IMG/VR virus record: IMGVR_UViG_3300021512_000003
Span: 17,889-81,888 of that record
DNA from: a virus
Direction: 5' to 3' (one strand)
Length of the DNA stretch: 64,000 nt
Shown one piece after another: positions 30,904 to 59,305 of the stretch. Made by a program: the position numbers and the translations under genes. Position 1 is the stretch's first letter; every line of letters starts with the position of its first letter. A model generated the notes under the pieces. That model searched no databases, was not told the DNA's origin, and saw nothing but the letters and a program-made list of their open reading frames with translations.

Positions 30904-30961
30904 ATATATTCTCTTTTTGTTAAAATTTGTTTGTGTGGAGATAAACTTCTATCGTAATGCC

Positions 30962-40973: not shown

Positions 40974-41000
40974 TTCTATCAATCCTTTTTAGTGGTGGTA

Positions 41001-41073
41001 ACATAACAAGGTTTTCAAAGCGGACACATTACAGCGTACCGCTTTCATTTAGCCGTTTAAAACGAGGTTAGGT
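41001..41073 (+). repeat. attC-like site
   Basis: ACATAAC AAGGT TTTCAAAG CGGAC...GCCG TTTAAAA CGAG GTTAGGT. Confidence 0.8.
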
Positions 41074-41297: not shown

Positions 41298-41323
41298 AGA
41301 ATAACCCCTTTAATTTAACAGCA

Positions 41324-41382
41324 GCCTAACAAGGCTGCTGTTTTGGAAGCGCTGAAGCGCTCCACAAAGCTTTACGTTATAT
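41324..41382 (+). repeat. attC-like site
   Basis: GCCTAAC...TGGAAGCGC TGAA GCGCTCCA...GTTATAT; near-identical to 57689-57747. Confidence 0.85.
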
Positions 41383-41609
41383 GTAATAAGTGTCCACACA
41401 AACTTCAGCATGAATGTGTATCTGGTCTTTTCCACATCTCTATCTAAACCATCTTAAACAGTCGTATACTTAAACCCCCTCACAACAAACCGGACACCCT
41501 TGTGAGGTTAAGCGGTAGCCCACCAAGGAGGAGGGCAAGCACTCAAACTTTACTTACGATTAACACTCAGTTCTGTGGTGGCAATAACTGACCAACCACA
41601 GGAAAGCAT

Positions 41610-41708
41610 ATGGACCCAATTAGCATCATCCTCACCCTTAAAGTCGCAACCCTATCCGTTGCGCTAGTTACTGAACTCGTCAAGCTGTATAAAGAACTTA
41701 GTAAGTAA
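41610..41708 (+). CDS. 32-aa hydrophobic peptide, candidate type I toxin (TisB-like pattern)
   Basis: MDPISIILTLKVATLSVALVTELVKLYKELSK; AGGA RBS inside a stem; structured leader. Confidence 0.55.
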   Translation: MDPISIILTLKVATLSVALVTELVKLYKELSK

Positions 41709-41843
41709 CTAACAATTAGAGTGCAGTACCAAAGATAATCTATAAAACGGTTTCAGAATCCAACTGAATAAAATGGAGTTTAAAATAAATCTTAAATCAG
41801 TAGCGTCTTATCCTCCTTGAGTTTGGCGCTCATTAAATATTAC

Positions 41844-41915
41844 ATCTAACAATCACATTAAGTCACTTCGTTCGGACTGTCGCTGACGCGTCAGCCGCTT
41901 ATGTGGGCGTTATAT
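41844..41915 (+). repeat. attC-like site
   Basis: ATCTAAC AATCACATTAAG..CGGACTG..CAGCCG CTTATGTG GGC GTTATAT. Confidence 0.8.
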
Positions 41916-42172
41916 CACTCATCCACCCATAAAAGCTTTTTAGTTATTCTGGTTTCAGTCACTTCTTTAGAGGTCTCAATGATCTCTGATTTTGTTTTGA
42001 ACATCACGAACAGCCTCTCAAGCTCTGCGTCGAGTGCTGCATCAAAAATATCACTCATCCCATGATCGGTGGCGTAGTCGCGCATACAAAGGAGTTCTAT
42101 GGTGTAATCTCCCAGCTCACACCCGTCAAGGTGCGCGTATTCGGTCAGAATGTTGTATCTATCTTCGTTCAA
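41915..42172 (-). CDS. cassette gene, hypothetical
   Basis: GGAGG RBS, TTG start, 85 aa. Confidence 0.65.
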   Translation of the reverse strand: MNEDRYNILTEYAHLDGCELGDYTIELLCMRDYATDHGMSDIFDAALDAELERLFVMFKTKSEIIETSKEVTETRITKKLLWVDE

Positions 42173-42185
42173 AATAACCTCCGTA

Positions 42186-42241
42186 ATCTAACAATCAATT
42201 TAAACCGGATTGCTACGCAACCGCTTAATTGAGCGTTATAA
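42186..42241 (+). repeat. attC-like site
   Basis: ATCTAAC AATCAATTTAAACCGGATTGC TAC GCAACCGCTTAATTGAGC GTTATAA; near-identical to 58787-58842. Confidence 0.9.
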
Positions 42242-42250
42242 GGCTTAGCC

Positions 42251-42502
42251 CTAATTCTCTTTCTCCCAATTCCTTTCGCCTTTTTCAAAGGCAACAGCGA
42301 TGTCCAGCACCTCTCTCACGGTTTTTCCGTACTGGTGCTGCGAAGGAAGGCTGAATATCTCAACAGGTACTTTTTCCATACCTGGTTGGCTTCCAATCAA
42401 AGAGTTTTGTTGTATTTTAACGCCACATCCCTCACCTGTGCCGTCTTCCACTAGCATACGCTCTATAAAGTCGATGCGGTCTTTGTCTGTAATTTCGCTC
42501 AT
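42251..42502 (-). CDS. cassette gene, hypothetical phage protein
   Basis: ITDKDRIDFIE...TVREVLDIA; unit ends GTTATAAGGC and GCCTTATAAC. Confidence 0.7.
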   Translation of the reverse strand: MSEITDKDRIDFIERMLVEDGTGEGCGVKIQQNSLIGSQPGMEKVPVEIFSLPSQHQYGKTVREVLDIAVAFEKGERNWEKEN

Positions 42503-42529
42503 GTTTATATCCTTGGTAGGTAAATCGCC

Positions 42530-42586
42530 TTATAACAAGGCATTGCAGCGGACGCGCTCTGCGCGCCGCATAGTTTTGCGTTAGCT
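42530..42586 (+). repeat. attC-like site
   Basis: TTATAAC AAGGC ATTGCAGCGGACGCGC TCT GCGCGCCGCATAGTTTTGC GTTAGCT. Confidence 0.85.
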
Positions 42587-42780
42587 ATCATTAATTACTC
42601 TACGCACTGCACACAATTTATCCCCGACAACGATGTAGCCCGCTTTTATCCGTTGTGTAAACTGGGCGCGTTGCACTCCGATTGCTCGCGCAAATGCGCT
42701 TTGATTCCTTTGAAAGTTTCGGCTATAAAGTCGGCCAGCCTTTTCAGCCCGTCCGCTTTGCATTTTTCGCTAGGTTTCAT
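42581..42780 (-). pseudogene. Cro-like HTH gene, apparently frameshifted
   Basis: MKPSEK..LADFIAETFKG in one frame continues as NQSAFARAIGVQRAQ..GYIVVGDKL in another. Confidence 0.5.
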
Positions 42781-42986
42781 AGTAGATTAGAGTCGATATA
42801 TTCCTGCGCTTCATCCTTGGAAGCGAAGGTGAGCGCACCTTTTTCATCGCTCACATCAGCTCGCGCAATCGAATCATATATTAAAAACGGCCCTGCAAAA
42901 TCAAACCGCCAAAGCCGAGTTGGGTGAAACCTGCATTCCATAACCCAACCCCCTATGTTGTCTGCGTTGCAAATTTCGTGACTCAT
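42777..42986 (-). CDS. cassette gene, hypothetical
   Basis: GAGGAG RBS; C-terminal FASKDEAQEYID. Confidence 0.6.
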   Translation of the reverse strand: MSHEICNADNIGGWVMECRFHPTRLWRFDFAGPFLIYDSIARADVSDEKGALTFASKDEAQEYIDSNLL

Positions 42987-43034
42987 GTTGTTTCTCCTCA
43001 GCGCCTTCGGGTCACTCCCTTAGCTCATGTATGT

Positions 43035-43063
43035 ATAGTAATATACACCCCACACACTGTCAA
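43035..43063 (-). promoter_or_regulatory. sigma70-type promoter inside a cassette
   Basis: TTGACA-17 bp-TACTAT on the minus strand. Confidence 0.7.
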
Positions 43064-43093
43064 CGAAATGCTATACAAATAATCAAATAAAAT

Positions 43094-43155
43094 AGCTAAC
43101 AAAGCAACTCAAATCCGACTCCGCTGGCGCTTGCGGTTTAGCTGAGGCGTTATGT
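43094..43155 (+). repeat. attC-like site
   Basis: AGCTAAC AAAGC AACTCAAATCCGAC...GCGGTTTAGCTGAGGC GTTATGT; extra C and extra A on the left arm. Confidence 0.9.
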
Positions 43156-43350
43156 GGAAAAACAGGCCTCAAGGGCATCTAAATACTGTGGTAAATTCTC
43201 ATAGTTTCCCGTAAGCTCAGCCGTCTTCCTTTCACTAGCGACTGCTCTTGCTGATGAGAGAACGCGGAGCACTTGATGGCTGGTTCCGCCCTGCCAGCTT
43301 AGTGCTTTTATAGCCTCTTCCAAAAACGGATCTTGTTTATTATTTGTCAT
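43150..43350 (-). CDS. cassette gene, hypothetical
   Basis: 66 aa (ALSWQGGT); stop codon inside the attC GTTA. Confidence 0.65.
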   Translation of the reverse strand: MTNNKQDPFLEEAIKALSWQGGTSHQVLRVLSSARAVASERKTAELTGNYENLPQYLDALEACFST

Positions 43351-43387
43351 ATAGATATACCTATAGTTTATTTGTGGTTATAAATTC

Positions 43388-43428
43388 ACATAACAAGGCA
43401 GTCAAGCAGACTGCTGAAAGCGTTGCTT
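43388..43428 (+). repeat. truncated attC-like site (left arm only) ending array 2
   Basis: ACATAAC AAGGC AGTCAAGC AGAC matches the left arm of 39710; no L' partner. Confidence 0.65.
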
Positions 43429-43488
43429 TTTTCAAGTTCTTTGGGGATTTCATGTTTCATTCCTCTTAGTGTAAAGATGTATTTTACC

Positions 43489-43926
43489 TTATGACCAAAG
43501 CCCTGTAAAGTATTTAGCAAACAATCGTAAACCCTCTTTACACTTCTCTTCGTAGACAGACACATCTTCTTTGTATCTTGTATATTCTTGTGGGTTGTCG
43601 GGAGCTAAGCTCAGGACTCCGTTGCCTACAAGATCAGGGAAGGTGAAATTATAATCTTCCATACAAGGCTCACCATAGGGGTCAAAAGCTTCCACCATAC
43701 GATCAAGCACGTACAGCCAAGCCTCCAGCCCACCTAACCCACTCAAAGCATCTCCCTCTTCCACCTCACAATAAGAGGATAGCTCTTTCTTGAATAGAAT
43801 AAGAAGTGGGTGGATGATTAGTTTTAATGTTTCATCTACACTCCATATGTCCCACTCATCAACCTTTATCTTAACCTCTCTCTCTCCACCACAAGTTCTT
43901 GGGTAGTTCCCTATCTGTACTTCCAT
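43489..43926 (-). CDS. hypothetical phage protein
   Basis: DIWSVDETL..IIHPLL...EGLRLFAKYFTGLW. Confidence 0.7.
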   Translation of the reverse strand: MEVQIGNYPRTCGGEREVKIKVDEWDIWSVDETLKLIIHPLLILFKKELSSYCEVEEGDALSGLGGLEAWLYVLDRMVEAFDPYGEPCMEDYNFTFPDLVGNGVLSLAPDNPQEYTRYKEDVSVYEEKCKEGLRLFAKYFTGLWS

Positions 43927-44429
43927 ATTAAACCTCTAGTATGTTGGTGTTCAGTTAAATACTAAACAGCCTCTCTACGTGTAAAAAACATGTATCTGGT
44001 AGGGTAGCCTACCTTTTCACAGAAAACCCCCTACACAGGGGCTTAGGAGGCTTCTCGCTTACAATACACTCCCCTAATAGGTGCACTTCTGAGAAAAGGA
44101 GGGCACACCTTGAAGTGTATCCGCATCCTTAGCAGTTTTCCCACAACTAACCGTACATTGTGTGCCGTTATTCTCTACTTCCAGTTTAGCCTTTGCAAAG
44201 AGTCCTTTTGTAACCCCATACTCCCAAGCATAGTTTTGATATGTTTGAGCCTTGAAGGGACTTTCATTCTCTGTTGAGGTGTACCCTCTTTCGTAAGCAT
44301 CGCAAACACTTCTTACAAGGTTGTCCAAAGCTTTATCCTTTTGTGTGGTTGAAGTTGGGAGGTTATAGGAAAATATATCCATTGTCAAATAAAATAATAT
44401 TGACTTGGAGTAGTTGCAAGCGAGTCTTT

Positions 44430-44570
44430 GGTAGTACTGTACAGTATTACAGTGTAGTACTACACTAACTAACTATATTACTTATAACACTACTTATTAT
44501 ATTACTTATAATACTTCTCTTATATTACTTACTATATTAATTCAGTATTACTATATAGTATTACTTCTTT
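44430..44570. repeat. AT-rich TATTACTT repeats and palindromes at the divergent strand switch
   Basis: Several TATTAC(TT) copies; palindromes TACTGTACAGTA and AGTGTAGTACTACACT. Confidence 0.6.
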
Positions 44571-45195
44571 AGGGTATCACACCTTTTTCAGAAACACAAC
44601 ACTACAGCTCGATTTTGTTCACTAAGCAAATAAAAGAGGTGTAGAAAATAGAGTAAAGAGTGCTTAAAGAGAGAGAAAAATGGTGTTTTATTACACTTCT
44701 CTTGCTATTTATTTCTCTCTCCACTATACTCCTTATCTCATTATTTCGGAGAGGTAATACAGTGAAACTAAGTGAATGTAGTGTAGGTAGAGTGGTGCTA
44801 ATACAAGAGGATGGTCGCCCAACAGAGGTTGGTCATGTTGTAGGGTTTTCTCGACTGTATCAGACAGCTCCACTAGAGAGCACGAAAGTAGAAGTTATGA
44901 TCCCTAGTGGGAAGACTATTGTTACTTCAGTTGGTGATTTGGAGGTGTATTGTGGGTGATCCTAGAAAGTGTATTTCTGCTATGGGTGGGCACATTAAAT
45001 GGCAACTAATAACAAAACCCAACAACTCTACCTTTTTATGTGTTATCTTCACAGGGGAGGATTATGAGTTTGGATATTGGGATGAATCTGTGTGTTGCTG
45101 GGATTGTCCAGAGAAGGGGTGGGTAGAGGATTCTGAGGTGTTAGGGTGGTTTGAGCTACCCCTACCACCAGAACCTAATCAAGAGGCACTAAAAG

Positions 45196-45492
45196 GTGTG
45201 TAGTGTTAGAGCTAATGTAGTGTTCTCTGCCTACATCGCTGTAGGGGATTATGACTCTCTTGCAGTGTGGGGCTTAGAAGAGTCTGGTGCGGGTGGTTAC
45301 GAGTCACTGGATGGACTCCCTACAGTGTGTGTTGAGACAGAGTTAGAGAACCTTGGGGCACAAGACTGGTATGACTGTCTACCAAAAAAGGCTACAGAGC
45401 AAGGCGTGTACTTCTTAACAGGGTCTGCTTCTTTTGAGGAAGACGATGTTGAATACTTGACAGCAGATTACCAAAGTATTAAGGTGTGTTAA
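45196..45492 (+). CDS. acidic hypothetical protein
   Basis: 98-aa ORF in a run of small plus-strand genes. Confidence 0.5.
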   Translation: MCSVRANVVFSAYIAVGDYDSLAVWGLEESGAGGYESLDGLPTVCVETELENLGAQDWYDCLPKKATEQGVYFLTGSASFEEDDVEYLTADYQSIKVC

Positions 45493-45577
45493 TGGGGTAG
45501 CTATTGCTAGCCACACAACTCAAGAGACTTTTCATTCACTATTTCAATTTCACTAATAAGCACAAGAGGGTAAAACA

Positions 45578-45814
45578 ATGAAAGAAGTTATCTTAGTAGA
45601 AGAAAATAAGAACACTATTGACTTATGGAGAGTGGACACCTCCAGACCCATCTTTGCCAAGAAAGGTGGTAAGCTTGTTGGTATGCTTTTGAGAGAGTCT
45701 GATGGGTGGGTCGTAAGGTATGGTGACGGGAGGGGTGTAACAGGGCACTACAGTACAAAAAAAGAGTGCCTCGCATCGACTACAGATTTTAGCTACACCT
45801 TCCGCACAAAATAG
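45578..45814 (+). CDS. hypothetical protein, paralog of 53130..53387
   Basis: Shared PI.A.K.GK.VGML..E..GW..R.G...G.TGH. Confidence 0.65.
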   Translation: MKEVILVEENKNTIDLWRVDTSRPIFAKKGGKLVGMLLRESDGWVVRYGDGRGVTGHYSTKKECLASTTDFSYTFRTK

Positions 45815-45882
45815 TAACAAACAAGGCTGTCCTTTGTTCCAGTACTTAGGACAGCCCCTCTAATCACTCTGCCAGTAGTAAC

Positions 45883-46044
45883 CCACTCAAGCGACTTCTC
45901 ACCTCACCTTTCAATTTTCCCGCAGTAAACTTATCCACTCAAGCAATTCCTCATTCAGCTGTTCAGTTTCACTAGCACAGGTTGATCCACTCGAGCGATT
46001 TCTCGTTCCACTCAAGAGAGTTTTCATCTCAGGTTTCAATTTCG
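45883..46044 (+). repeat. degenerate direct repeats CCACTCAAG...TTTCAATTT
   Basis: Copies start at 45883, 45935, 45987 and 46008; one further copy near 45518. Confidence 0.75.
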
Positions 46045-47005
46045 CCAGAGAATTTTTATTCAGGCGTATTAGGAAAAACTAATATAAAGATTTTATTATA
46101 TAAGGGAACACTAATATTAGGCTTTCCTGATATACATTTTGTTGTTGCTTTATACTGGTTATTCCTTTAGTCTAAAAACCAACATTTACAAAAAGGAGAG
46201 GTGATTATGCTTATTGATGCAGATTGTGTGCAGGATGCCTGCAAACAGTTAAGAAATTTTCGGGCCTGGAGCCCGTATAGATATGGGGGCGTGTGGTTTT
46301 TAGCGCAAATTAACGAAACAGAAGTGGTCTGTTTTCGAACAAAACAGACGGTAGTGAAACACCTACTAGCTGCAAACGTAGTAAATATTGAAATTTGGAA
46401 AGCAGGGGGTTAAATTATGGGGTTATTAGATTTATTGATGCCACGGACGGAGCCACAAGAAAACCTTGCACAGGATGACGGGGTTTTTCTTGATTTATTA
46501 ATAGTATCAGCAAGAGATTTTGCGAGAATACACGAACAAACACGGCTAGAGATAGACACACTAAATAGACTGTTTTTGCGTTATAATCGTATGCGCTACT
46601 ATATGCAGCAAACACAACGTAATGAGATAAACATCACGCACAACATAGACGCGCACTATATAAAGCGGGATAACAATATTATTTTAAAAAGTAGTTGACA
46701 AGCTAAAACAAATGAGTAAGGATAGCTGCATCTTTTATGAAAACAGAGGGCTTAAAAATGAAACTGGCTAATGAGTATGCGGTGATAGCTAGCAATTTAG
46801 AGAGAGGTGAGCGGTACAGCTTCATTAATATAGCGCACTGGGATAGAATGCTAAGGGAGATAGCAGGAATACTACAGGTGGCAGACTATGACACAAAGCA
46901 GGCGGCTGTAGCTGTACTGGTTACACTAGCGAGTGACTACAGAAACAAGGGCTTGTATAGCAACATAGTATTATCAATCACAAAAGAAATAGAGGGATTA
47001 ACAGC

Positions 47006-47428
47006 ATGAATATTAAACGAATTGAAGAATATTTGAAAAAGCATAATAGCGGTAAAACTGGCTATGACATCGTTGAATTTTACACTTTCGTTGACAACGC
47101 GCAGCAGTATATAAAAGCAACAAAGCAGGCAAGAATGATTTGCTCAATTGACACTGTATCAAAAAGCGGAATGTCTCGAAAAATGAAGTTTTTAGAGCTG
47201 AAAAAGAACACAAGGACAAGCCAACATCAGCTGTTAAATTTTAACGTATTTTTTAGGGCAATGGGGTACAGACCGGTACGCGATAGCGATTATTTTAGAA
47301 TTAGTGGCTGTGGAATGGATATGGTTTTTCATACTAATTATGAGATAATTCACCGACTACACCACCTGGGTTTCATCACTAAAAAGACGTGCGAAACACT
47401 GGCACAGAGAACACCACACATAATCTAA
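47006..47428 (+). CDS. hypothetical early-region phage protein
   Basis: VSKSGMSR...GCGMDMVFH. Confidence 0.7.
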   Translation: MNIKRIEEYLKKHNSGKTGYDIVEFYTFVDNAQQYIKATKQARMICSIDTVSKSGMSRKMKFLELKKNTRTSQHQLLNFNVFFRAMGYRPVRDSDYFRISGCGMDMVFHTNYEIIHRLHHLGFITKKTCETLAQRTPHII

Positions 47429-47441
47429 AAAGGGTAGAGAA

Positions 47442-47726
47442 ATGAGTGATTATTTGAAATGCACATTATTGAGCATTGACGCATGGGCCGATGGTAACGG
47501 TGGATGGGATTGGAACGATTGGCACACAATAGAGGAAGACATCTACATTGACCCAGACCTATCCAATCGAGAACTAATTAAATTTTTTAGGGATGATCTA
47601 AATTTGATAAATGATAAATCAAAAGGTTTTGTGAGCATTGAGGATGACGATTATAACATACTATTGAAAATTAGGCAGACTGGCGAGCCTATTTATGCCC
47701 TCTGCTATGGGATGCACTCTACATAA
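47442..47726 (+). CDS. hypothetical early-region phage protein
   Basis: IDAWADGNGGWDWNDW. Confidence 0.65.
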   Translation: MSDYLKCTLLSIDAWADGNGGWDWNDWHTIEEDIYIDPDLSNRELIKFFRDDLNLINDKSKGFVSIEDDDYNILLKIRQTGEPIYALCYGMHST

Positions 47727-48153
47727 CGTCTAAAAGAGGAGTACAGAAAATGAACACAAGAAGAGAAAATATCACAACAGCTAAAACACAACTAATCATT
47801 GATTGTATGCAAACCAGAGGTAGTGACAATACAAAAATTGAACACCTGGGAGAATGTTTAAAAGACAAAACACAGGAGGGCATTATTGAGTATTTACAAT
47901 CGGATGATTGTTGCTGTAAACTCCCTCTGTCATTCTGTAGTATTTTAGAGAGTGCGGAAATAATCGGAATAATACAGACAGGGGCAACACAGCAACAGGA
48001 GGATGTTGTTGCAGCAAACTGGCTGTACATGATGTCTAGACACATTCTGCTATTAGTTAATCAGCCTGTGTTACAAATAAGCTAATTATTTTCTTGCATT
48101 ATGTACAATAATCATTAATATAGCGCATATCAAAACAAAACAGGGATTAAGAA

Positions 48154-48462
48154 ATGCAAAAAACATTATCAGTGAATGATTTTATAGCAGAATTTGAGGC
48201 TTATGGTCGAGAATATAATTTCACACGAGAAAGCCTTGTTTCTCTTTTTGAGTTTTTCGAGGAATTTGAGGGTTTCGAGTTAGATGTTATAGGTATTTGT
48301 TGCCAGTTTACAGAGTATGATTATGAGGATCTGCCAGCCGCATTTGATCATGTGCTAGATGAGAGTGAAGAGTATAGTAACGAGGAATGGCTCGAGGCTT
48401 TAAACGAACTAACTATAGCTATACCTGTTAGTGCTGATCTGTTAGTTATTTCTGAATTTTAA
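48154..48462 (+). CDS. highly acidic early protein
   Basis: Glu/Asp-rich 102 aa; ELDVIGICCQFTEY; downstream of a sigma70-like promoter. Confidence 0.7.
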   Translation: MQKTLSVNDFIAEFEAYGREYNFTRESLVSLFEFFEEFEGFELDVIGICCQFTEYDYEDLPAAFDHVLDESEEYSNEEWLEALNELTIAIPVSADLLVISEF

Positions 48463-48474
48463 GAGGCGCTCACT

Positions 48475-49035
48475 ATGACCCCTAAAAAGCAAAAATGGTT
48501 AGTTCAACACAAGGAATGCGACAGGCGGGTAAGAGTAGACACAGCTGTTAGGCGCGATACGCTCTACAGCATAGATCTGGAACTGTTTCGCCTACGCTCG
48601 TACAAACTACAGCACGAACAATTAGGGGGGATAATAGCTGGCGCTTGCGTATATACGGGCGAGGCGGCAAGGAGGTACAGACACACGGCTACCAATAGGC
48701 TGGTTAATGTAAAATCCATACCTAAATATACGAGCGCTAGCAATATTGCATATGATCGGGCCTGTGTTGCTATGACATCTAATTTTACAGAATGGGGCAC
48801 GTTGTGCAAACACTACGAGAGAGCATTAAGCATATTTTCCGAATTAGCTGACACAAAACAGCACCTAGCAGATTGTAGGCAAGCGTTAAAATGCAAACCG
48901 ATCAAGTGCGCAGAGGATCTTTTAGCGTTACGTGTACGTGCCGGTAAGTTAAGGGCAAGCATGCGCGAACCACACGACACAACTATCACTGCATTTTTGC
49001 GACTGATTAAACGATTGAACAAAAACAGGAATTAA
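48475..49035 (+). CDS. basic hypothetical early protein
   Basis: 186 aa with a GAGG RBS. Confidence 0.55.
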   Translation: MTPKKQKWLVQHKECDRRVRVDTAVRRDTLYSIDLELFRLRSYKLQHEQLGGIIAGACVYTGEAARRYRHTATNRLVNVKSIPKYTSASNIAYDRACVAMTSNFTEWGTLCKHYERALSIFSELADTKQHLADCRQALKCKPIKCAEDLLALRVRAGKLRASMREPHDTTITAFLRLIKRLNKNRN

Positions 49036-50250: not shown

Positions 50251-50276
50251 AAAAGGCCCTTGTGGGCCTTTATTTT
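50251..50276 (+). terminator. intrinsic terminator closing the early-gene block
   Basis: AAAGGCCC-TTGT-GGGCCTTT followed by ATTTT. Confidence 0.75.
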
Positions 50277-51442: not shown

Positions 51443-51470
51443 TTGACATGGGCAGTAATACGAGTATAAT
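51443..51470 (+). promoter_or_regulatory. sigma70-type promoter
   Basis: TTGACA-16 bp-TATAAT upstream of the GGAGG RBS and MSDAQMG start. Confidence 0.7.
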
Positions 51471-52390
51471 TCTCCACATGATAAATAAAACAGGAGGTTA
51501 CAAGATGTCAGATGCTCAAATGGGTTTACTACTTGGCCTAATGATAGGACTTATGTTTGGGGTTGTTGTTACTATGGTGATTGTAGATAGCCCCTCAGGC
51601 CAAGCGCTTCTGAGAGAGCGCACTTCCATCGTCTCAGAGTGTGAGAAAGCACTCCCAAGAAACCAACACTGTGAAGTGAGAATGGAAGCATTCGTAGGAG
51701 AGGAAGGACAATGAAAACACTACAAAGCCTTGCAGCACTCTTTACATTTCTTTGTCTTGCAATTGTAGTTGCAGCGGTCTGCTCACACAGCTTACAACTC
51801 CTTATCCAAGAAGACCACTACAAGGAGGTAAACAGACAAGAGATGATAGACGGACTAAAGAATTGTGAAGAGGTGTTTGGGAGAGAATGTACGTTATCTT
51901 ATTCTATAGCTCCTATCAAAATAACAAACAACACGTCTAAGAAAGGCGTAGAGAAGCGTTCTCTCTGAAGATGTACATTGATAAGGGTAGAATAACAGGA
52001 GGCTTAGAGAGCCTCTAAGGAGCTTTAATGGCAATACTCCTTAGTATTAAGGATATGTCAACATATTGACACATATACAGAAGAGAGGTTTTAGGCTACT
52101 TCGTAAGTGTCAAATAATTGACAGTGTTAGGTACAGGGTGATATTGTTTGTTAATGATATTTTATTATTAGAGGATAAGGGGTATTTATGCTAGTTAGTA
52201 TTACATTGGAAGGTATTTTAGAGGTTACACCAGAGAGTAGTTTAGAGGGGTATGCTTTAGGTGTATGGGCGAGAGATAATCTGAAAGAGGGTGGTAATCT
52301 CTTCCTTAATATCTATGAAGACCCAGAAGAGATGGGTGAAGGTGAAACTCAATAGTGGATGCACTTATATGTTTGACAGGAGAGTAACAA

Positions 52391-53113
52391 ATGAGTAAAG
52401 TAACACTGATGCAGGGCGATTGCCTTGAGCGGATGAAGGAGATTGAGAGCGGGTCGGTTGATATGGTATTGACTAGCCCTCCGTATAATATGAACTTGCG
52501 GATACGGAACGGTAGGTACTGCTCCCGCCAAATAGTAAAAGAACTCAGCACGAAATATACTAACTTCCCCGACAATCTCCCCATGAAGGAATACTTCGAG
52601 TTTAATAGAAAAGTTATAAACGAGTGTCTGCGGGTTTCGGATCTTGTCTTTTACAACGTGCAGTTTTTAACCGGAAATAAGCCAGCGTTATTCAAGTTAC
52701 TAGGAGAGTTCAACGAAAAGGTGAAAGAGTTTATCATCTGGGATAAGGGTAACGCGCAGCCTGCAATAGGCAAGGGTGTAATGAACAGTCAGTTTGAGGT
52801 TTTAATTGTGCTACAAAACTCTAAGCCAGAAAGCAGGGCGTTCCAAACTGCGCAGTTTGACCGAGGGACGTTATCAAATGTGTTTGCTATTAAAAGGGGG
52901 AAGAAGGTAGAGAAAACACACGGAGCCACATTCCCGCAGACACTTGCAGAAAAAGTTATATCCTGCTTTTCTGCAAGCGGTTCGACTATTCTTGACCCGT
53001 TCATGGGCAGTGGTACGACTATACTGGCTGCTCAGAATCTCAATCGTAATGGTATAGGGATAGAGCTAGACGAGGGATATTTCAAGATAGCACAGGAGAG
53101 GGTGGGGCAATGA
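52391..53113 (+). CDS. DNA methyltransferase (N4/N6 family, beta class, SPPY)
   Basis: TSPPY, HGATFP and LDPFMGSGTT motifs. Confidence 0.92.
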   Translation: MSKVTLMQGDCLERMKEIESGSVDMVLTSPPYNMNLRIRNGRYCSRQIVKELSTKYTNFPDNLPMKEYFEFNRKVINECLRVSDLVFYNVQFLTGNKPALFKLLGEFNEKVKEFIIWDKGNAQPAIGKGVMNSQFEVLIVLQNSKPESRAFQTAQFDRGTLSNVFAIKRGKKVEKTHGATFPQTLAEKVISCFSASGSTILDPFMGSGTTILAAQNLNRNGIGIELDEGYFKIAQERVGQ

Positions 53114-53129
53114 ACAGGGAGCTAATAGT

Positions 53130-53387
53130 ATGATTAGTGCTGTACCAAGTTCAGAAGGCAAGGCAGTCATAGAAGCTAAGAATGTAAACGAGTACGAACC
53201 TATCCTTGCTATTAAAGAGGGAAAAGTTGTAGGTATGTTGGTTAAAGAGGTAGAGGGGTGGATACTCAGAACAGGAGGAAGGTGTGGATCAACAGGTCAC
53301 TTTGAAGACCTCTCTGATTGTATAGAATCTGGGGAGGAGTGTGGGTACACCTTCCACCAAGATGTAGAAGTGAAGGATGCTAAATGA
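53130..53387 (+). CDS. hypothetical protein, paralog of 45578..45814
   Basis: Shared motif as listed for 45578..45814. Confidence 0.65.
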   Translation: MISAVPSSEGKAVIEAKNVNEYEPILAIKEGKVVGMLVKEVEGWILRTGGRCGSTGHFEDLSDCIESGEECGYTFHQDVEVKDAK

Positions 53388-53845
53388 CCTATTTGATGTT
53401 GTGTATTCACAAGCAAACTAAACTGAAATTAGTCTCATGGGCTACAGTTTGTAAGGGGCAGCATGAGCAGGGCTTTGTCTACAAGAAGTGCTGCGTAGTG
53501 TGTGGTGGAGAGGTAATCAGACAGAGACTACCTATATGAAAATATCTGATGAAGGTACAGCTTTGTTATTAAGAGAGGAGCTTGCAGATGATGGGGTTGT
53601 TACTACCTACTACACAATAACCCTTGCCTCTATTTTATCTGAAGCTTCTTATATGAAGATCAGTAGAGAAGATATTATGAATGGATGTTTCTTTTTTAAG
53701 GTGTTCCTTACTACAGAAGATGGTGAAGAGATTGCCGAGATTGTGTTAGCAGAGCCTAAGAGGGTTTCTGATAGCTTCAAAGCTCTGCTTGCTGACATCG
53801 GTTTTAAGACACTACAATCTAAACTTAGTTAATAGGAGGTTTTAT

Positions 53846-54835
53846 ATGAGGCTTGAGGATATTGGTTTTTATACGTTGAGCGATGAGAGGGCTAAGAGCA
53901 CATCTCCAACATCACAAATGAAGCGTTGTGAGATGATTATTAATGAGTACTGTAATTTCAAGTGCCCCTACTGCAGAGGTTTGGCTGAGATGGTGTTCGA
54001 TAATAGAATAAAAAAGGAACTCTCGATAGAGGAGATTAAGAGAAATATTGATCTCTGGTGTGACGGACTCCCCTTGGAGAATATTAGGTTTTCTGGTGGG
54101 GAGCCTACTTTCCATAAACACATTGTCCAAGCTGTTGAGTATGCCAGACAAAGTGGGGTTAAGAGGGTGGCGATTTCCACCAATGGTTCCAACAAGAGAA
54201 AAATATATGAAAGGTTGCTTGCCGCAGGGTGTAATGACTTTTCAATATCTCTTGACGCAGCAGATGCAGAAACAGGTGACAGGATGGCTGGTAACATCTC
54301 TGGTGCATGGGCAAAGGTGGTCAGAAATATCGAGTGGATTTCACAAAGAACTTATGTTACTGTAGGTGTGGTGTTGGAGCCAGAAAATATTGAAGGGTTT
54401 ATTCAGATTGTTGAGTATGCAAGCTCACTTGGGGTTTCTGACATACGAGTTATCCCCTCTGCACAGTGGGATCAGCCACTACCAGGATTGGCAAACATCA
54501 ACCAAAGTATACTAGACAGACACCCTATTCTGAGGTATAGAGTAAACAACTTCATACTAGGAAAGAGAATCAGAGGTTTAACTGAAACTTCAGCAAAAAG
54601 TTGTCCACTAGTATTGGATGATTCAGTCATTGCCGGAGAAGACCACTACCCATGTGTAATCTATATGCGAGAGCAAGGACAACCCATAGGCAAAGTAAGT
54701 GAAACAATGAGGCAGGAGCGCGTTGATTGGCTCAAGCGTACTAATACCCACCAAGAACTGATATGCAAAAATAATTGCCTTGACGTGTGTGTGGATTACA
54801 ATAAGAGAAGTGTAGGGTTTTCAATAAAGGGGTAA
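53846..54835 (+). CDS. radical SAM enzyme
   Basis: CNFKCPYC (CxxxCxxC), FSGGEPT, STNG, ISLD; C-terminal Cys cluster; AGGAGG RBS before ATG 53846. Confidence 0.9.
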   Translation: MRLEDIGFYTLSDERAKSTSPTSQMKRCEMIINEYCNFKCPYCRGLAEMVFDNRIKKELSIEEIKRNIDLWCDGLPLENIRFSGGEPTFHKHIVQAVEYARQSGVKRVAISTNGSNKRKIYERLLAAGCNDFSISLDAADAETGDRMAGNISGAWAKVVRNIEWISQRTYVTVGVVLEPENIEGFIQIVEYASSLGVSDIRVIPSAQWDQPLPGLANINQSILDRHPILRYRVNNFILGKRIRGLTETSAKSCPLVLDDSVIAGEDHYPCVIYMREQGQPIGKVSETMRQERVDWLKRTNTHQELICKNNCLDVCVDYNKRSVGFSIKG

Positions 54836-54838
54836 GTT

Positions 54839-55282
54839 ATGACAAAAGATGACGCAGTAACTTACGCAACAGAAGCACACAGGGGTCAGATGTATGGCGA
54901 TAAACCTTACGTTTACCATTTAGAGCAAGTGGCAAAGGAGTACCTCTCGTTTTTCAGAGGGAGTGCAGTAGAGGATGGTGTAGTTGTAGCCTACCTCCAC
55001 GATGTCTTAGAGGACACAGATAAGACAGAAGAAAACTTACTACAGGCAGGCTTCTCTCAAGGAGTTGTTTCTTGTGTTAGCAAGCTCACCTTTTGGAACA
55101 AGTTATCACGGGAGCAGTACATAGAGGACATTAGAGTGTTGCGTCATAGTCCGACAATACTACGTGTTGCTTGGGAGGTTAAGGTGGCAGACACAATGTC
55201 AAACTTGAGACACAGTGTAAAGGAGGGTAACGTAAGGAGAATATCTAAATACATGGAGCAAGTGAGGAGACTTTATGCTTAA
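54839..55282 (+). CDS. HD-domain hydrolase (RelA/SpoT hydrolase or Mesh1-like)
   Basis: AHRGQ..PYVYHL, LHDVLEDT and VKVADTMSNL motifs. Confidence 0.85.
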   Translation: MTKDDAVTYATEAHRGQMYGDKPYVYHLEQVAKEYLSFFRGSAVEDGVVVAYLHDVLEDTDKTEENLLQAGFSQGVVSCVSKLTFWNKLSREQYIEDIRVLRHSPTILRVAWEVKVADTMSNLRHSVKEGNVRRISKYMEQVRRLYA

Positions 55283-55349
55283 GACAACTCTGATAGGTTA
55301 GAGAGGGCACGTTAGTGGTGTGCATATATTTATTTCACAGGAGAAGAGT

Positions 55350-56039
55350 ATGATTGTATTGAACAGAATAGAGACACCAGATGGTACACAAATTACAAGT
55401 CACTACAGGCACGACTATGTGAGCCACGAAGATGCAAATGGGTTCGTTTACAGTGTAGATGGTGGTTTGGACTACATTAAGCGTAGTGCCCATAGAGACG
55501 CTCCTTCGTGTAAAGAGCTTTCAGTGTACTCTGAAGATCCTTTTGAAGAAGTTCGGGAGGCATTCCTCTGGGGTACTTATGGGAAAGATGGTGGAGAGGC
55601 TCTTAAGCACGTAGCTCTTTGTGAGCTGACAGATGAACACATACAGGCTATACTTGACACACAGGGTCACTTATCTGTAGACGTGTGTGAGCTGTTCCTC
55701 TTAGAGCAGAAGTGGAGAGAGAGTCACCAAGAGAGGCCTAGAGAGCAATCTGAACTAGGGGTACAAGAAGAGCACATTAGGTGGGGTAAGGCACTTGCTG
55801 AGATGCTCCTTGGTGCTGAGGAGTACAATAGTCATAAGGTGACAGAGTTCTCTACCTTTCCAAAGAAGATGCTTCTGTTGTTGTGTAAGGAGTTGGAGAA
55901 AGTGGAGGTTTCTTGTACATACATCCAACTCTGCACGGATATGTCAGGAAGTGTTTACCAACAGGACTATTGGGGAGAAGGGGATCACCCGCTGGGGCAC
56001 AGAGACAGGCTACTGTTAGGTGTTGGAGAGATAACTTAG
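55350..56039 (+). CDS. hypothetical phage protein
   Basis: TPDGTQITSHYRHDY, VDGGLDY and WGTYGKDG. Confidence 0.7.
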   Translation: MIVLNRIETPDGTQITSHYRHDYVSHEDANGFVYSVDGGLDYIKRSAHRDAPSCKELSVYSEDPFEEVREAFLWGTYGKDGGEALKHVALCELTDEHIQAILDTQGHLSVDVCELFLLEQKWRESHQERPREQSELGVQEEHIRWGKALAEMLLGAEEYNSHKVTEFSTFPKKMLLLLCKELEKVEVSCTYIQLCTDMSGSVYQQDYWGEGDHPLGHRDRLLLGVGEIT

Positions 56040-56048
56040 TATACAGTG

Positions 56049-56072
56049 AAGGGGCACAAAGCCCCTTTTTTT
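56049..56072 (+). terminator. intrinsic terminator at the convergent junction
   Basis: AAGGGGC-ACAAA-GCCCCTT followed by a T run. Confidence 0.8.
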
Positions 56073-56080
56073 ATTACCGA

Positions 56081-56752
56081 TTATTCAGACTCTAGGACAA
56101 GCTCTCCATTATCAACGTACAACCTATACACCTGACCATTAACTCTATCTGTTACTCGAAGAACAGCAAAACCCTTCTTACCCATCTTAGCCATATCTAT
56201 GGCTACAGGCTCACTTCCCTGCATACCTGCAAGTGCGTTCTCTCTGAAGTCAATACCTGTGTTCCAACCTAGTGCCTCTCCAAGAGGTGAAGCTGGTAGA
56301 GAGTTAATCTGTATAGCTCTTGAGTTCCAATTATACTTATTAGACCCAACACCGCCTAGAGGCTCTGCAACACCGTCACGTCTATTCTTGATGTTGACAG
56401 CAATACCTACCTTAGCTCCTTCATTCTCAGAGTTAAGAGAGATTACAGAAGACTCCAGTCCAATTTGGTGTATTGTTGCCACACCTTCATGTGAGTTCCA
56501 GGCTTCTGTAGCCACACCAAAGGAGTGACCTATGCCATAGAGGGCTGTGTTGTGAGAGTTTAGTTGAGCAGCTACAGACAAGTTCCTGTTTGCTGTGAGG
56601 GAGGTGGCTCTGTTATCAGCAGTTATGCCGTAGGTGATGTGATCAGTGCTGGACTGGTACTTTACGTGGAGAGGCTCTTTGACTACCTCTGCTGTAAGAA
56701 AACCACAAGAAAATGTAGTTGTGAGGGTTAGTGCTAGTATTGTCTTTTTCAT
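56081..56752 (-). CDS. hypothetical exported protein
   Basis: MKKTILALTL signal-peptide-like start; beta-rich body. Confidence 0.6.
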   Translation of the reverse strand: MKKTILALTLTTTFSCGFLTAEVVKEPLHVKYQSSTDHITYGITADNRATSLTANRNLSVAAQLNSHNTALYGIGHSFGVATEAWNSHEGVATIHQIGLESSVISLNSENEGAKVGIAVNIKNRRDGVAEPLGGVGSNKYNWNSRAIQINSLPASPLGEALGWNTGIDFRENALAGMQGSEPVAIDMAKMGKKGFAVLRVTDRVNGQVYRLYVDNGELVLESE

Positions 56753-56834
56753 GGTAAGCCTCTTAGTTATGTGTCTTAGTAGGCACACTATAACTTAAGA
56801 GGCTCGTAATTGCAAATGTTGGTCAGCTAATAGT

Positions 56835-57383
56835 CTACTCTTTGTCTTCCAGACGTGTTTGGATCTGCTCTGCACACAAATATAAATCCCTTCCCATAAG
56901 AACTTCCTCAATCTCGTCTTTTGATAAAAACCCTTTGTAGATATTCCTCAAGGCTTCGTCGTAGTGCTTCACTTTGAAATCACCACCAGCGATAAACTCA
57001 TTTCTCTTACCACACTCTCCCCCTGACCAAGCATGGATGAGCATCTGTGCATAAGGAGAGATACTAAAGCTAGAACACCCCAACACAAGAATACTGCCTG
57101 CACTATAGATCTTCCCGTGCAAGCAGGCTGTTGTCTTTGCAGGTGTGTTCTGTAGGGCTTGGTATATGAGGAGGGCTGTGTCCGTATCTCCTCCATTTGT
57201 GTCCAAAAGTATTTCTATTTGGTCATCAACTGTAGCATTGTAGATTAAGTCTATAAGGGAGTGATATTGTGAAGATCCTTGAATGTCGTCTTTGAAGTAC
57301 AAACTATAAGAGGTCCCTATAGGAGAAGCTTTTATTGTGTAAGGCAGGTCTTCGTAACTCTCTTCTACTTCCATTGGAGGCAC
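56835..57383 (-). CDS. ClpP-like (S14) serine protease
   Basis: LDTNGGD, YSAGS and MLIH motifs; DLYLCAEQ. Confidence 0.85.
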   Translation of the reverse strand: MPPMEVEESYEDLPYTIKASPIGTSYSLYFKDDIQGSSQYHSLIDLIYNATVDDQIEILLDTNGGDTDTALLIYQALQNTPAKTTACLHGKIYSAGSILVLGCSSFSISPYAQMLIHAWSGGECGKRNEFIAGGDFKVKHYDEALRNIYKGFLSKDEIEEVLMGRDLYLCAEQIQTRLEDKE

Positions 57384-57394
57384 CCTGTTGTGTG

Positions 57395-57451
57395 TAAGTG
57401 TTTGATTTCATCAGTATGACTTTGTGTAGTCTGTATAGTCCAGTGTTATGT
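57395..57451 (+). other. attI-like site C
   Basis: 49 bp identical to site A; GTT at 57445 heads array 3; IHF consensus at 57395-57407. Confidence 0.7.
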
Positions 57452-57454
57452 GGC

Positions 57455-57664
57455 TTATTGGTTATCCACTTTCACAGTAATAGCGCCATCCAGTGTTATG
57501 CAGTATCTTTCAAGCCCAAGGGAGACTCTGTATTCTGGGTAGCCTTTTCTTAGGCACTCAGCCTCTGTGTAAATTGCTACTGGCGGAATAATGAAGGCGC
57601 AATACAATATGAGTAAGACGGCTGGTGTAACGACAGCTAGTATTATCTTTTCGATTAAAATCAT
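57455..57664 (-). CDS. cassette gene, small membrane protein
   Basis: TM helix, then ECLRKGYPE..YC. Confidence 0.65.
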   Translation of the reverse strand: MILIEKIILAVVTPAVLLILYCAFIIPPVAIYTEAECLRKGYPEYRVSLGLERYCITLDGAITVKVDNQ

Positions 57665-57688
57665 ATCTTTCTCCGGAGATAAAGCACC

Positions 57689-57747
57689 TCATAACAAGGT
57701 GCTGTTTTGGAAGCGCTGAAGCGCTCCACAAAGCTTTAGTGTTATAA
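57689..57747 (+). repeat. attC-like site
   Basis: TCATAAC...GCGC TGAA GCGC...GTTATAA; near-identical to 41324-41382. Confidence 0.85.
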
Positions 57748-58095
57748 AACTCGATAGGCATGGTAGTAACCAGCCGCGCGTCTTTTAAATGTGCCGATCG
57801 TGGTAATATGCAGTTTTCCAGCGTTAAATTCATTACCATCTGGATCAACCCAGCGGCGAGTATAAAAAACTCGCTCTAGGTACCTCCCTGGCTTGTGTAT
57901 GTCGACCACCTTTAAAATCATTTCCCCGATTCCTTCAGCAACAAGCTCATGATCTCCTGAAGCGGTCGGCTCACTTTTGCACCCTGGAATCCATACGTAA
58001 TCCGAGTAATATTCACCAGTAACGGCATACCATTCATGGGTTCCCGTATAAAACGGGAATTTAACTCTAATATGCTGCCCATTGTGCAATTCCAT
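57742..58095 (-). CDS. cassette gene, hypothetical phage protein
   Basis: GGAGGAG RBS before MELHNGQ; RVFYTRRWVDPDG; stop codon inside GTTA. Confidence 0.7.
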   Translation of the reverse strand: MELHNGQHIRVKFPFYTGTHEWYAVTGEYYSDYVWIPGCKSEPTASGDHELVAEGIGEMILKVVDIHKPGRYLERVFYTRRWVDPDGNEFNAGKLHITTIGTFKRRAAGYYHAYRVL

Positions 58096-58112
58096 AACTC
58101 CTCCAAATCGTT

Positions 58113-58178
58113 TTATAACAAGGCGTTTCACGCAGACCGCGCAAAGTGACGCGCGACTGGTGAACTTAGTCGTTAGTT
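58113..58178 (+). repeat. attC-like site
   Basis: TTATAAC AAGGC GTTTCACGCAGACCGCGC...GCGCGACTGGTGAAC TTAGTC GTTAGTT. Confidence 0.85.
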
Positions 58179-58373
58179 TGCTTCGTTATCTATTTGAATT
58201 TTCATTTTTACCCCCCTATACGTAAATTCCGATGGCTCGGTATCTTTGCCTTTTGCAGCGGTGAAGGACTCAAGAAATAAATCCAGACCAAAAACATTAA
58301 GCCCAGCATCCAATATTGCCTGCCCAGTTATACCGGTATTTTTATTGCTCCTTGTGAATTTATTTTGTGACAT
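58173..58373 (-). CDS. cassette gene, hypothetical
   Basis: 66 aa; stop codon inside GTTA. Confidence 0.6.
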   Translation of the reverse strand: MSQNKFTRSNKNTGITGQAILDAGLNVFGLDLFLESFTAAKGKDTEPSEFTYRGVKMKIQIDNEAN

Positions 58374-58402
58374 TTGGTGTTACTCCGTAGGTATTACTGG
58401 CA

Positions 58403-58464
58403 ACCTAACAGTCGCATTAAAATCTAACTTCGCTGGCGCTTCGCAGTTTATGCGAGCGTTAGAG
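58403..58464 (+). repeat. attC-like site
   Basis: ACCTAAC AGTCGCATTAAAA...GTTTATGCGAGC GTTAGAG. Confidence 0.8.
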
Positions 58465-58761
58465 TGCTAAACAGTCTCTTATTTGCTTAGCCTTGCTTTC
58501 CTGCCCTTTTGTGAATGCTCTTCCTTTTTGAACCTCAATGACCCCTAGTATTTCTTCGGCTGTGAATTGCTCTATGCACTCGTCGTCTGATCGGAAGGCG
58601 CATTCTCCATCGAAGGAGATTTTAAGAAATTTGGTAAGATGACATTGTATCGTCGTCATCGCCCCCTCCGCTAAACTCCACACCACCACACTGAAACTGT
58701 CGCTGCTGTAAGCAGTTCGCCCTCCGCCACCGGGTTTTTTAGCGGTTCGTTCTAATCTCAT
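58459..58761 (-). CDS. cassette gene, hypothetical
   Basis: 100 aa with a GGAG RBS; stop codon inside GTTA. Confidence 0.65.
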   Translation of the reverse strand: MRLERTAKKPGGGGRTAYSSDSFSVVVWSLAEGAMTTIQCHLTKFLKISFDGECAFRSDDECIEQFTAEEILGVIEVQKGRAFTKGQESKAKQIRDCLAL

Positions 58762-58786
58762 AATCCCTGCTCCTTGTTTAGCCGTA

Positions 58787-58842
58787 ATCTAACAATCAAT
58801 TTAATTCGGATTGCTACGCAACCATTTAGTTGAGCGTTATAA
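58787..58842 (+). repeat. attC-like site
   Basis: Near-identical to 42186-42241. Confidence 0.85.
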
Positions 58843-59064: not shown

Positions 59065-59286
59065 TTATGTTCTAAATGTTAGCCCACAAATAATTGCGAT
59101 AATAGAACTAATAATTACAACATTTACAACACGGTTGTTCCTCTCCCGACGATTTTTTTTTGCGAAGTCCTGTGCGTAGCTTAATTCCTGTTTAGTTACA
59201 GGTGTGCCAAGTTTTATGGCTTGGCGTATAGAGAAAAAACTTTTCACTACTGCCACTCCAATATTAAAATAAACATAACAAAGCAC
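59065..59286 (-). CDS. cassette gene, small membrane protein (start uncertain)
   Basis: Unit bounded by GTTATGTT (59064) and AACATAAC (59272-59279). Confidence 0.5.
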   Translation of the reverse strand: MLCYVYFNIGVAVVKSFFSIRQAIKLGTPVTKQELSYAQDFAKKNRRERNNRVVNVVIISSIIAIICGLTFRT

Positions 59287-59305
59287 TTAAAAATCAGACT
59301 GTCTT
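59273..59305 (+). repeat. truncated attC-like site ending array 3
   Basis: ACATAACAAAGCACTTAAAAATCAGACTG matches the left arm of 31915; no right arm. Confidence 0.6.

Follow-up and report, generated by a model that had tools for sequence, protein, structure and literature searches.

Groups of clustered attC sites with no accompanying integron integrase (CALINs) have been described in phage genomes, including that of a virulent marine Pseudoalteromonas phage (Qi et al. 2023, PMC9892861). In the passages of that study on which we draw, DNA methyltransferases appear among the phage cassettes, GTTRRRY motifs are noted at array boundaries and IntI1 is shown to recombine phage attC sites; the same passages do not treat attC families shared between arrays, an antisense gene layout or the origin of the cargo. 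The second system to be considered is the sedentary chromosomal integron. As set out in the relevant sections of Loot et al. (2017, PMC5371416), attC sites about 80% alike are found there on unrelated cassettes, and this homogeneity is taken as a sign that cassettes are made in the hosts where the attC family lives. These sections call the making of integron cassettes largely unknown, and report integrase-independent slippage between attC sites of 83% identity. Taxon-specific attC sites, in which sequence and structure carry a signature of the source, are described in the portion of Ghaly et al. (2021, PMC8352920) used here. In the present work, we characterize attC-type sites that recur, in near-identical form and beside unrelated genes, in separate arrays of a 64,000-nt stretch of viral DNA (positions 17,889 to 81,888 of IMG/VR record IMGVR_UViG_3300021512_000003; hereafter the window). 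Sites are named by their first nucleotide in the window, unless genome positions are indicated.

The window represents bases 17889-81888 of an 81,888-bp record, both ends of which carry the same 127 nt. The end repeat indicates a circular assembly; thus, the window comprises most of the circular genome of a marine phage, and its end joins genome position 1. Inspection by eye and regular-expression searches located 22 attC-type sites in the genome, distributed over about six arrays (those named A, B and C lie in the window; Table 1). No integron integrase was found in the complete genome, there being 0 matches to TIGR02249 and no candidates at first look. The layout is therefore not that of a complete integron, with intI adjoining attI and a cassette array, and corresponds to a CALIN: arrays of 2-9 attC sites in a genome where an integron integrase was not found. 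Since the enzyme was not found, cassettes could move only if an integrase of the host acted on them in trans.

Arrays of attC sites without an integrase and a methyltransferase among the cargo are features held in common with the phage CALINs (PMC9892861, passages cited). This genome differs from them in having 22 sites by eye in about six arrays, four of which start at a conserved entry repeat. Related attC sites on unrelated cassettes are likewise a point of resemblance to sedentary chromosomal integrons, as portrayed in the cited sections of PMC5371416, from which the phage differs in having several small attC families, antisense genes and phage-type cargo, and in that an integrase was not found. 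The original prediction, that near-identical attC sites are reused with unrelated genes, had treated this pattern as special. It is not new: high relatedness of attC sites on unrelated cassettes is a known hallmark, indeed a textbook feature, of sedentary chromosomal integrons (PMC5371416, same sections). The phage pattern is best read as the counterpart of that homogeneity, carried over to phages. As to its origin, we lean towards a cassette pool resident in phages, where a small number of attC lineages would have become associated, repeatedly, with new phage genes.

Two scans for attC sites based on minimum free energy proved either too strict or too loose, and the regular-expression list and a covariance model (R1) were used instead. 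RNAalifold returned no structure from a MAFFT alignment of all 22 sites; the structure was then written by hand on a 12-site alignment. R1 was trained on 12 phage sites, and its E-values are rough by construction. At E<=0.01, the model identified 16 distinct sites in the genome, all on the + strand, 12 of them being training sites and 4 not. Scores were weak for 58113 and 42530 (Table 1), and 40494 and 31915 were not recovered at E<=10.

In the aligned sites, TAAC is invariant (22/22) and GTTA is present in 21/22, the exception being 31915 (GCTA); the inverted R'' (RYYYAAC) and R' (GTTRRRY) boxes of attC are found at the site ends. The sites are imperfect hairpins of 56-76 nt, compared with the 120-129 bp of the Vibrio sites that dominate the published set (PMC5371416, sections cited). 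Single-base bulges occur on one arm, mainly the 5' arm of the + strand, with 5 versus 2 unpaired bases, for example, in several sites. In the hand-written structure of 25 pairs, 79.9% of the cells are paired across the 12 sites, versus 28-43% when the partners are slid. Both-sided changes are seen at 15 of the 25 modelled base pairs, and none of 500 shuffles attains the covariation score.

R1 also recognizes attC sites from other sources. A degenerate attC pattern scan yielded at least 80 bacterial loci, mostly from marine Gammaproteobacteria; in 80 of these, R1 found 158 sites at E<=0.01 (among the matches listed), and an integron integrase scored above the curated cut-off in four of five source genomes tested. 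The attC site of the aadA1 gene of plasmid R100 was recovered with an E-value of 1.8e-09, on the aadA1 coding strand and just after the stop codon. This match fixes the polarity of the model, whose + orientation is the canonical attC top strand. DNA beside four bacterial intI genes, used for polarity calibration, gave one weak attC match, on the strand opposite intI as expected. Altogether, the repeats are, judging by sequence and modelled pairing, true attC recombination sites of the integron type. The 41324/57689 pair, which scores poorly under R1 (E 0.47 and 6.5), is on that account an atypical attC. In this family, the R'' box lies in the loop of a small local flank hairpin (41320-41345 and 57684-57709); where the stem differs between 41324 and 57689, compensatory changes preserve the pairing.

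Clustering of the attC sites, proposed as a check by the original prediction, produced five families. Global identity within them is 95, 91, 90, 83-87 and 80%, whereas the median of all 231 pairs among the 22 sites is 59%. Compared with an array of a sedentary chromosomal integron, in which one family of about 80% identity dominates, the phage thus has five small families of 80-95% identity and a low overall median. The individual resemblances initially pointed out were all borne out. Sites 41324-41382 and 57689-57747 are 94.6% identical over 56 nt (blastn) and have an exact core of 39 nt (41336-41374 and 57700-57738) that occurs twice in the window and in none of 100 dinucleotide-preserving shuffles. 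Sites 42186 and 58787 match, with the upstream CCGTA included, at 92% over 62 nt (42181-42242 versus 58782-58843); here an exact stretch of 23 nt occurs twice in the window and, again, in 0/100 such shuffles. The left arms of 31915 and 59273 are 93% identical over 29 nt (24 of 26 aligned positions), and those of 39710 and 43388 are 91% identical over 22 nt. Outside the window, the same genome contains a pair of sites, 1291 and 7731, with 98.5% identity over 66 nt, and a group formed by sites 829, 5231 and 5776 with 88-93% identity (blastn; genome positions).

Family members become alike 0-9 nt outside R'' and cease to be so at the GTTA of R'. Bases past GTTA differ in four of the five families, the exception being 42186/58787, where TTATAA is common to both members. 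Integron integrases cross over between the G and the TT of the R' box (G/TT, the slash marking the exchange point), and this is where family identity stops. Thus, the identity spans exactly the part of attC that is kept with the cassette in recombination, and each family would represent one attC lineage on different cargo. DNA similarity between arrays is limited to the attC sites themselves, to a repeat of about 50-60 nt at the low-coordinate edge of four arrays and to an element of about 35 nt at the start of some cassettes.

The edge repeat, hereafter the entry site, ends with CCAGTG/TTA exactly at the start of four arrays, three of them in the window (Table 1) and the fourth at genome 4825-4896. 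Integron integrases reportedly insert cassettes at non-classical genomic sites (attG) as well, outside attI and attC; this is the kind of reaction needed to seed the phage arrays, or to attach attC sites at gene ends. In place of scattered sites, the phage has a conserved entry site of about 50 nt.

Three cassettes, located in three arrays, have the same first 39 nt or so after the crossover and the same attC end. Their left neighbours differ, consisting of two different attC sites and one entry site. Like ends behind differing neighbours indicate that the + strand units bounded by R' crossovers behave as cassettes. The ~35-nt cassette-start element includes a perfect 7-bp hairpin and is found directly after the crossover in the three cassettes that share an attC end. 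Copies of it lie at 31013-31050 in the window and at genome 883-925, 6505-6537, 6862-6897 and 7192-7215. A 1.7-kb cassette outside the window contains three internal copies of this element, as if neighbouring cassettes had fused after loss of attC. A separate observation concerns the segment 41383-41843, which has the size of a cassette and is flanked by attC sites on both sides. Its minus strand lacks any open reading frame (ORF) of at least 50 aa; by eye, only an ORF of about 32 aa is present on the + strand, with a hydrophobic look.

Some sites are composite. The first 21 nt of 31458, together with the flank, are 100% identical to the 1291/7731 family, while the 12-nt apex of this site, ATTGCTACGCAA, recurs in 42186, as had been noted, and in 58787. 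Site 62257 has the same right arm as 63947 (identity at 22 of the final 24 nt) and a different left arm (agreement at only 11 of 26 positions), which makes it a mosaic. Half sites are found at the far ends of arrays (43388 and 59273). Outside the window, the far end of an array (genome 8205-8260) is occupied by a decayed member of the 42186/58787 family whose R boxes are mutated, and a lone right arm is present at genome 7962-8000, where its GTTAGGT supplies the stop codon of the next gene. Mosaic and half sites together show that exchange occurs inside attC sites.

The cargo genes are unrelated to each other, as initially claimed. An all-versus-all blastp comparison of 91 ORFs of at least 40 aa from the array regions gave a single match, which corresponds to a 25-aa overlap of frames crossing attC sites; 16 Smith-Waterman comparisons of proteins beside attC sites of the same family all gave z values of 2.1 or less. 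The further statement that these look like phage accessory genes is accurate for some of them. In a PHROGs scan of 30 cassette proteins, 7 had a match at E<=0.001 and the other 23 had none. The 7 include the two proteins, an N6_N4 DNA methyltransferase and a DUF3268 protein, that were matched in a Pfam scan of 29 cassette proteins.

These two genes have attC-free relatives in phages and viral contigs. The methyltransferase DNA shares 72-74% identity with counterparts in Vibrio phages 1.168.O, K359 and K360 and in Pseudoalteromonas phages HS5 and HS1. At the protein level, identity to the methylase of Vibrio phage 1.168.O is 74%, with the alignment reaching the last residue of the latter. In 1.168.O and HS5, the relative lies within the head-morphogenesis module, in 1.168.O overlapping its neighbours, and no attC was detected by R1 in either locus. 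The DUF3268 gene has relatives of 84% and 73% identity in two viral contigs, in tight and ordinary gene contexts; R1 detected no attC at these two loci, and homology stops at the end of the coding region. The expectation that the nearest homologues would be phage genes lacking attC was, therefore, verified for the methyltransferase and the DUF3268 protein and did not extend to most cassette proteins, which are without known relatives.

Other cassette proteins were followed individually. The 117-aa protein has 27 relatives, nearly all metagenomic, and none in a single-protein scan of IMG/VR. A search for attC covered 50 of 52 metagenome loci encoding relatives of this protein, with the two weakest matches (L221 and L222) left out, and was positive for two. 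At one of them (L187) attC sites flank the gene and are antisense to it; at the other (L185) the match is located some 450 nt upstream. One more locus (L173) has attC-like flanks by eye around the gene, and no attC was found beside the closest relatives (70% and 68%). The 217-aa cassette protein had no relative in a word-indexed protein library. The 100-aa protein matched 99 cluster representatives at E<=0.001, mostly of about 100 aa; some of its matches fall on repeats within large WD40 proteins, so that it may amount to a WD40-like mini-protein with two blades. No attC and no syntenic relative were found at 20 viral loci encoding relatives (44-64%) of the 507-aa gene that stands beside array B. 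On the strength of these comparisons, the cargo is phage-type wherever it has relatives.

Gene orientation was compared with that in bacterial cassettes from 19 loci with at least three R1 matches (among the matches listed). This count skipped cassettes that measured under 120 nt or over 2,600 nt or that lacked a 40-aa ORF. The longest ORF lies on the attC strand in 50/55 bacterial cassettes versus 3/15 phage cassettes, and antisense to attC in 5/55 versus 12/15. Phage units depart in this from the canonical cassette, where the ORF and the attC top strand run the same way and attC is found at the 3' end of the gene. The same tendency is apparent in 20 other IMG/VR contigs with this type of site (30 sites): an ORF was found immediately before R'' in 26 cases, and 22 of these ORFs are antisense. 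Thus, a mirror-image gene orientation sets phage cassettes apart from bacterial ones.

The position of stop codons is also reversed. The stop of an upstream ORF on the same strand falls in or at R'' in 31/80 bacterial sites versus 1/22 phage sites, and that of an ORF on the opposite strand falls at R' in 6/80 versus 9/22. By a strict count, a minus-strand ORF of at least 45 codons uses the R' TTA as its stop codon at 8/22 attC sites; for comparison, this holds for 22 of all 382 TTA triplets in the array regions. The count rests on the 22 attC rows alone; the pattern for entry sites had also matched four unrelated places. The methyltransferase, with its C-terminus colinear to the last residue of a non-cassette relative, is one of these eight genes.

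The attC lineages are not confined to one phage. A 41.7-kb viral contig estimated to be 45% complete (L160) encodes an 80-90% homologue of a small 97-aa gene that adjoins one of the entry sites, and carries beside it, on the minus strand at about 4520-4462, a diverged copy of the entry site. This contig has four R1 attC sites, one more by eye and a terminal half site, and all of its genes are antisense. Its attC sites match 41844 and 58403 at 91% identity, and its half site is identical to the left arm of 41844 at 34/34 nt. Its cassette genes have no detectable likeness to those of the present phage. A complete virus of 36 kb (L164) has a like layout with three sites. The five viral records other than this phage that were scanned in their entirety have 2-4 sites each at E<=0.01, as compared with 16 here. 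As to overall relatedness, megablast found no close DNA relative of the window in a phage library, and a blastn search with "distant" settings found nothing in that library for array C and the arrays outside the window. In L164, it may be added, a methyltransferase gene adjoins a short array of antisense cassettes that ends in a half site (6400-8200), a miniature of the same architecture.

The bacterial search sampled some 1,200 genomes, out of roughly 200,000 that represent species, and scored two candidates in each. Array B gave matches in 8 of 401 sampled genomes of the Pseudoalteromonas order (GTDB), none longer than 81 nt and about half of them overlapping attC. Array C gave matches in 2 of 401 sampled genomes, of at most 49 nt, and the arrays outside the window gave 0 matches in 400 genomes of the class, one genome being not scorable. 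Matches of cassette length accordingly amount to 0/401, 0/401 and 0/400 in these samples; a plasmid library gave no cassette match and only two weak methylase matches. An end-to-end match to a bacterial cassette, the outcome that the original prediction had set against itself, did not occur in these samples. Among the matches listed, none of the 158 bacterial attC sites comes nearer to a phage site than a match of 16-20 nt.

How do these data bear on the origin of the arrays? The phage-resident pool is favoured over simple capture of a host array by the attC-free phage relatives of two genes and by the antisense layout. Until now, the main clue to the making of cassettes has been that attC sites are alike, and genes unlike, within one chromosomal integron. 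New here are attC lineages common to several arrays of one phage and to another phage; phage-type cargo, where placeable, for which attC-free, parent-like genes can be recognized; the antisense layout; and no bacterial match so far. Two cargo genes are traceable to attC-free phage genes at 74-84% protein identity and so provide pairs, with and without attC, for comparison. These data suggest that accessory genes of phages, anti-restriction methylases probably among them, change hands in cassette form. As for the proposal that attC types are being joined to new phage genes, its first part held (few lineages on unrelated cargo, phage-type where placeable), and the joining event itself was not seen.

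Several points weigh against a phage-resident pool. The 41324/57689 pair fits the attC model poorly, and most cassette proteins are without any relatives that we found. An exact 24-nt scan of IMG/VR found no further copy of the entry site, and exact-pattern scans for two of the attC families found no other contigs in that database. The bacterial searches covered a small part of the available genomes, as specified above; short bacterial attC matches with 76-82% identity to some phage sites do exist in the genome samples, and the generic type of site is widespread in marine Gammaproteobacteria (among the matches listed). Stops supplied by the boxes are common in bacterial cassettes too, at the R'' end. 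Finally, the observed pattern would be equally expected from capture out of one bacterial integron with homogeneous attC sites.

If the pool exists, cassettes would be moved by a host integrase in trans, with crossover at the G/TT of the R' box, and attC could become joined to a gene in either of two ways. Recombination inside or at the edge of an attC would produce mosaic and half sites; alternatively, the integrase might cross over at GTTA secondary sites formed by the TAA-C stop codons of phage genes. The stop codon at the crossover and the native C-terminus of the methyltransferase would fit the latter route. This argument is weakened by the box-supplied stops of bacterial cassettes, in the light of which the phage R' figure may reflect compaction rather than a capture event. 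We can only tentatively suggest that phages of this kind have a cassette economy of their own, in which attC lineages would be attached repeatedly, in antisense, to ordinary phage genes, accessory genes would be mobile between phages via host integrases, and the first crossover would possibly take place at a TAA-C GTTA. Were this the case, cassettes would be so young that the non-cassette genes from which they derive could still be located, and the long-open question of how integron cassettes are made would become testable.

The alternative that survives best is simple capture. Here, cassettes would be made in a bacterial sedentary chromosomal integron with like attC sites and inserted singly at the phage entry sites by a host integrase. 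The shared attC sites would merely reflect homogeneity of the donor, and the antisense excess would arise because expression, and hence retention, is limited to cassettes that point the same way as phage transcription. The attC relatedness of about 80% on unrelated cassettes known for chromosomal integrons (PMC5371416, sections cited) agrees with this explanation, and so do the taxon-specific attC sites of PMC8352920 (portion cited), whose source signature could name the donor or the host of the phage sites. Further points on the same side are that the site type is common in marine Gammaproteobacteria encoding integron integrases (among the matches listed), that some phage attC sites have the short bacterial matches of 76-82% just mentioned and that, with no integrase found in the phage, a host enzyme is needed in any case. 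However, cassette-length matches were absent from the sampled genomes and from plasmids, and even the nearest of the 158 bacterial attC sites (among those listed) is distant. Moreover, few of the sampled bacterial cassettes are antisense, both genes that can be placed are of phage type and have phage relatives outside cassettes, and a median identity of 59% among the phage attC sites makes a single homogeneous donor unlikely. On these grounds, we consider simple capture doubtful, though a serious contender. If the arrays were plain captures from a host, the phage would carry an ordinary, albeit unusually large, CALIN.

A third explanation calls for no new making of cassettes: for each family, one cassette would be copied between arrays of the genome, followed by homologous or slipped-strand recombination across the like left arms of adjacent attC sites or by a swap of cargo. 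The mosaic and half sites do show exchange within attC, the 1.7-kb cassette with its internal cassette-start elements looks like a fusion, and slippage without integrase is on record for attC sites of 83% identity (PMC5371416, sections cited). Yet no pair of arrays retains a common cargo gene, no intermediate is seen and the same attC lineages carry further, different genes in L160. Rearrangement would reshuffle gene-attC pairs and leave the first placement of phage-type genes between attC sites unexplained. It is, in our view, unlikely as the full account. The pool, capture and reshuffling are not mutually exclusive.

Lastly, it is highly improbable that the hairpins act between genes at the level of RNA or transcription (as terminators, processing sites or translational controls), resemble attC only outwardly and have spread as repeats: their neighbours on both sides are co-transcribed, so that they would be transcribed too, a terminator-like flag falls on one half site and the local R'' hairpin of 41324/57689 keeps its pairing, but R1 recovers bona fide attC sites including that of aadA1, family identity ends at the canonical crossover, cassette-sized units have conserved ends behind different neighbours, no Rfam family matches anywhere in the window (0 matches) and, in array B, promoter-like and terminator-like counts show no excess over shuffles.

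Table 1. Coordinates of attC sites, entry sites and cassette genes in the window (E-values are those of model R1 unless otherwise stated).
Feature	Coordinates	Strand	Evidence and remarks
Entry-site repeat, low-coordinate edge of array A	30957..31016	+	Ends CCAGTG/TTAT; identity of the four aligned copies stops at GTTAT
attC, mosaic	31458..31515	+	E 2.6e-08; training site
Degenerate terminal attC of array A	31915..31978	+	R' = GCTATAC; left arm 93% to 59273
Entry-site repeat, edge of array B	39423..39482	+	Repeat alignment
attC	39710..39781	+	E 0.0078; R' TTA = methyltransferase stop (minus strand)
N6_N4 DNA methyltransferase cassette gene	39776..40468	-	PF01555, 8.4e-42; phrog_67; antisense to its own attC
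attC-like site	40494..40569	+	By eye only
DUF3268 zinc-finger protein cassette gene	40585..41004	-	Pfam, 7.1e-38; phrog_1934
attC	41001..41073	+	E 2.2e-05; not a training site
attC, family with 57689	41324..41382	+	90% global identity; E 0.47
attC	41844..41915	+	E 2e-07; 91% over 69 nt to an L160 attC with different genes
attC, family with 58787	42186..42241	+	91% identity
attC	42530..42586	+	Regular expression/eye; E 0.26
attC	43094..43155	+	E 1.2e-10; training site
Truncated attC consisting of a left arm, at the far end of array B	43388..43420	+	91% to 39710 left arm
Entry-site repeat, edge of array C	57390..57449	+	Repeat alignment
attC, family with 41324	57689..57747	+	R' TTA = stop of 117-aa gene; E 6.5
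117-aa cassette gene, function unassigned	57742..58095	-	27 relatives, nearly all metagenomic, few adjoining attC
attC	58113..58178	+	E 0.013
attC	58403..58464	+	91% over 57 nt to an L160 attC with different genes
100-aa cassette gene	58459..58761	-	Family of ~100-aa proteins also matching WD40-repeat proteins
attC, family with 42186	58787..58842	+	blastn, R1
Truncated attC left arm, far end of array C	59273..59301	+	Matches 31915 left arm
attC, mosaic	62257..62315	+	Right arm common with 63947, left arm different
attC, 2 nt past window end	63947..64000	+	= genome position 74-129, within the 127-nt terminal overlap

Two features near the arrays deserve mention. Between phage-like genes and the last attC sites of the window, the segment 63384-63630 is G+C-rich and contains several short inverted repeats and no convincing ORF. 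Outside the window, on the minus strand at genome 1398-4517, a gene for a 1039-aa ribonucleotide reductase large subunit is split by an intein with a LAGLIDADG domain; this gene sits between an attC site and the entry-site repeat.

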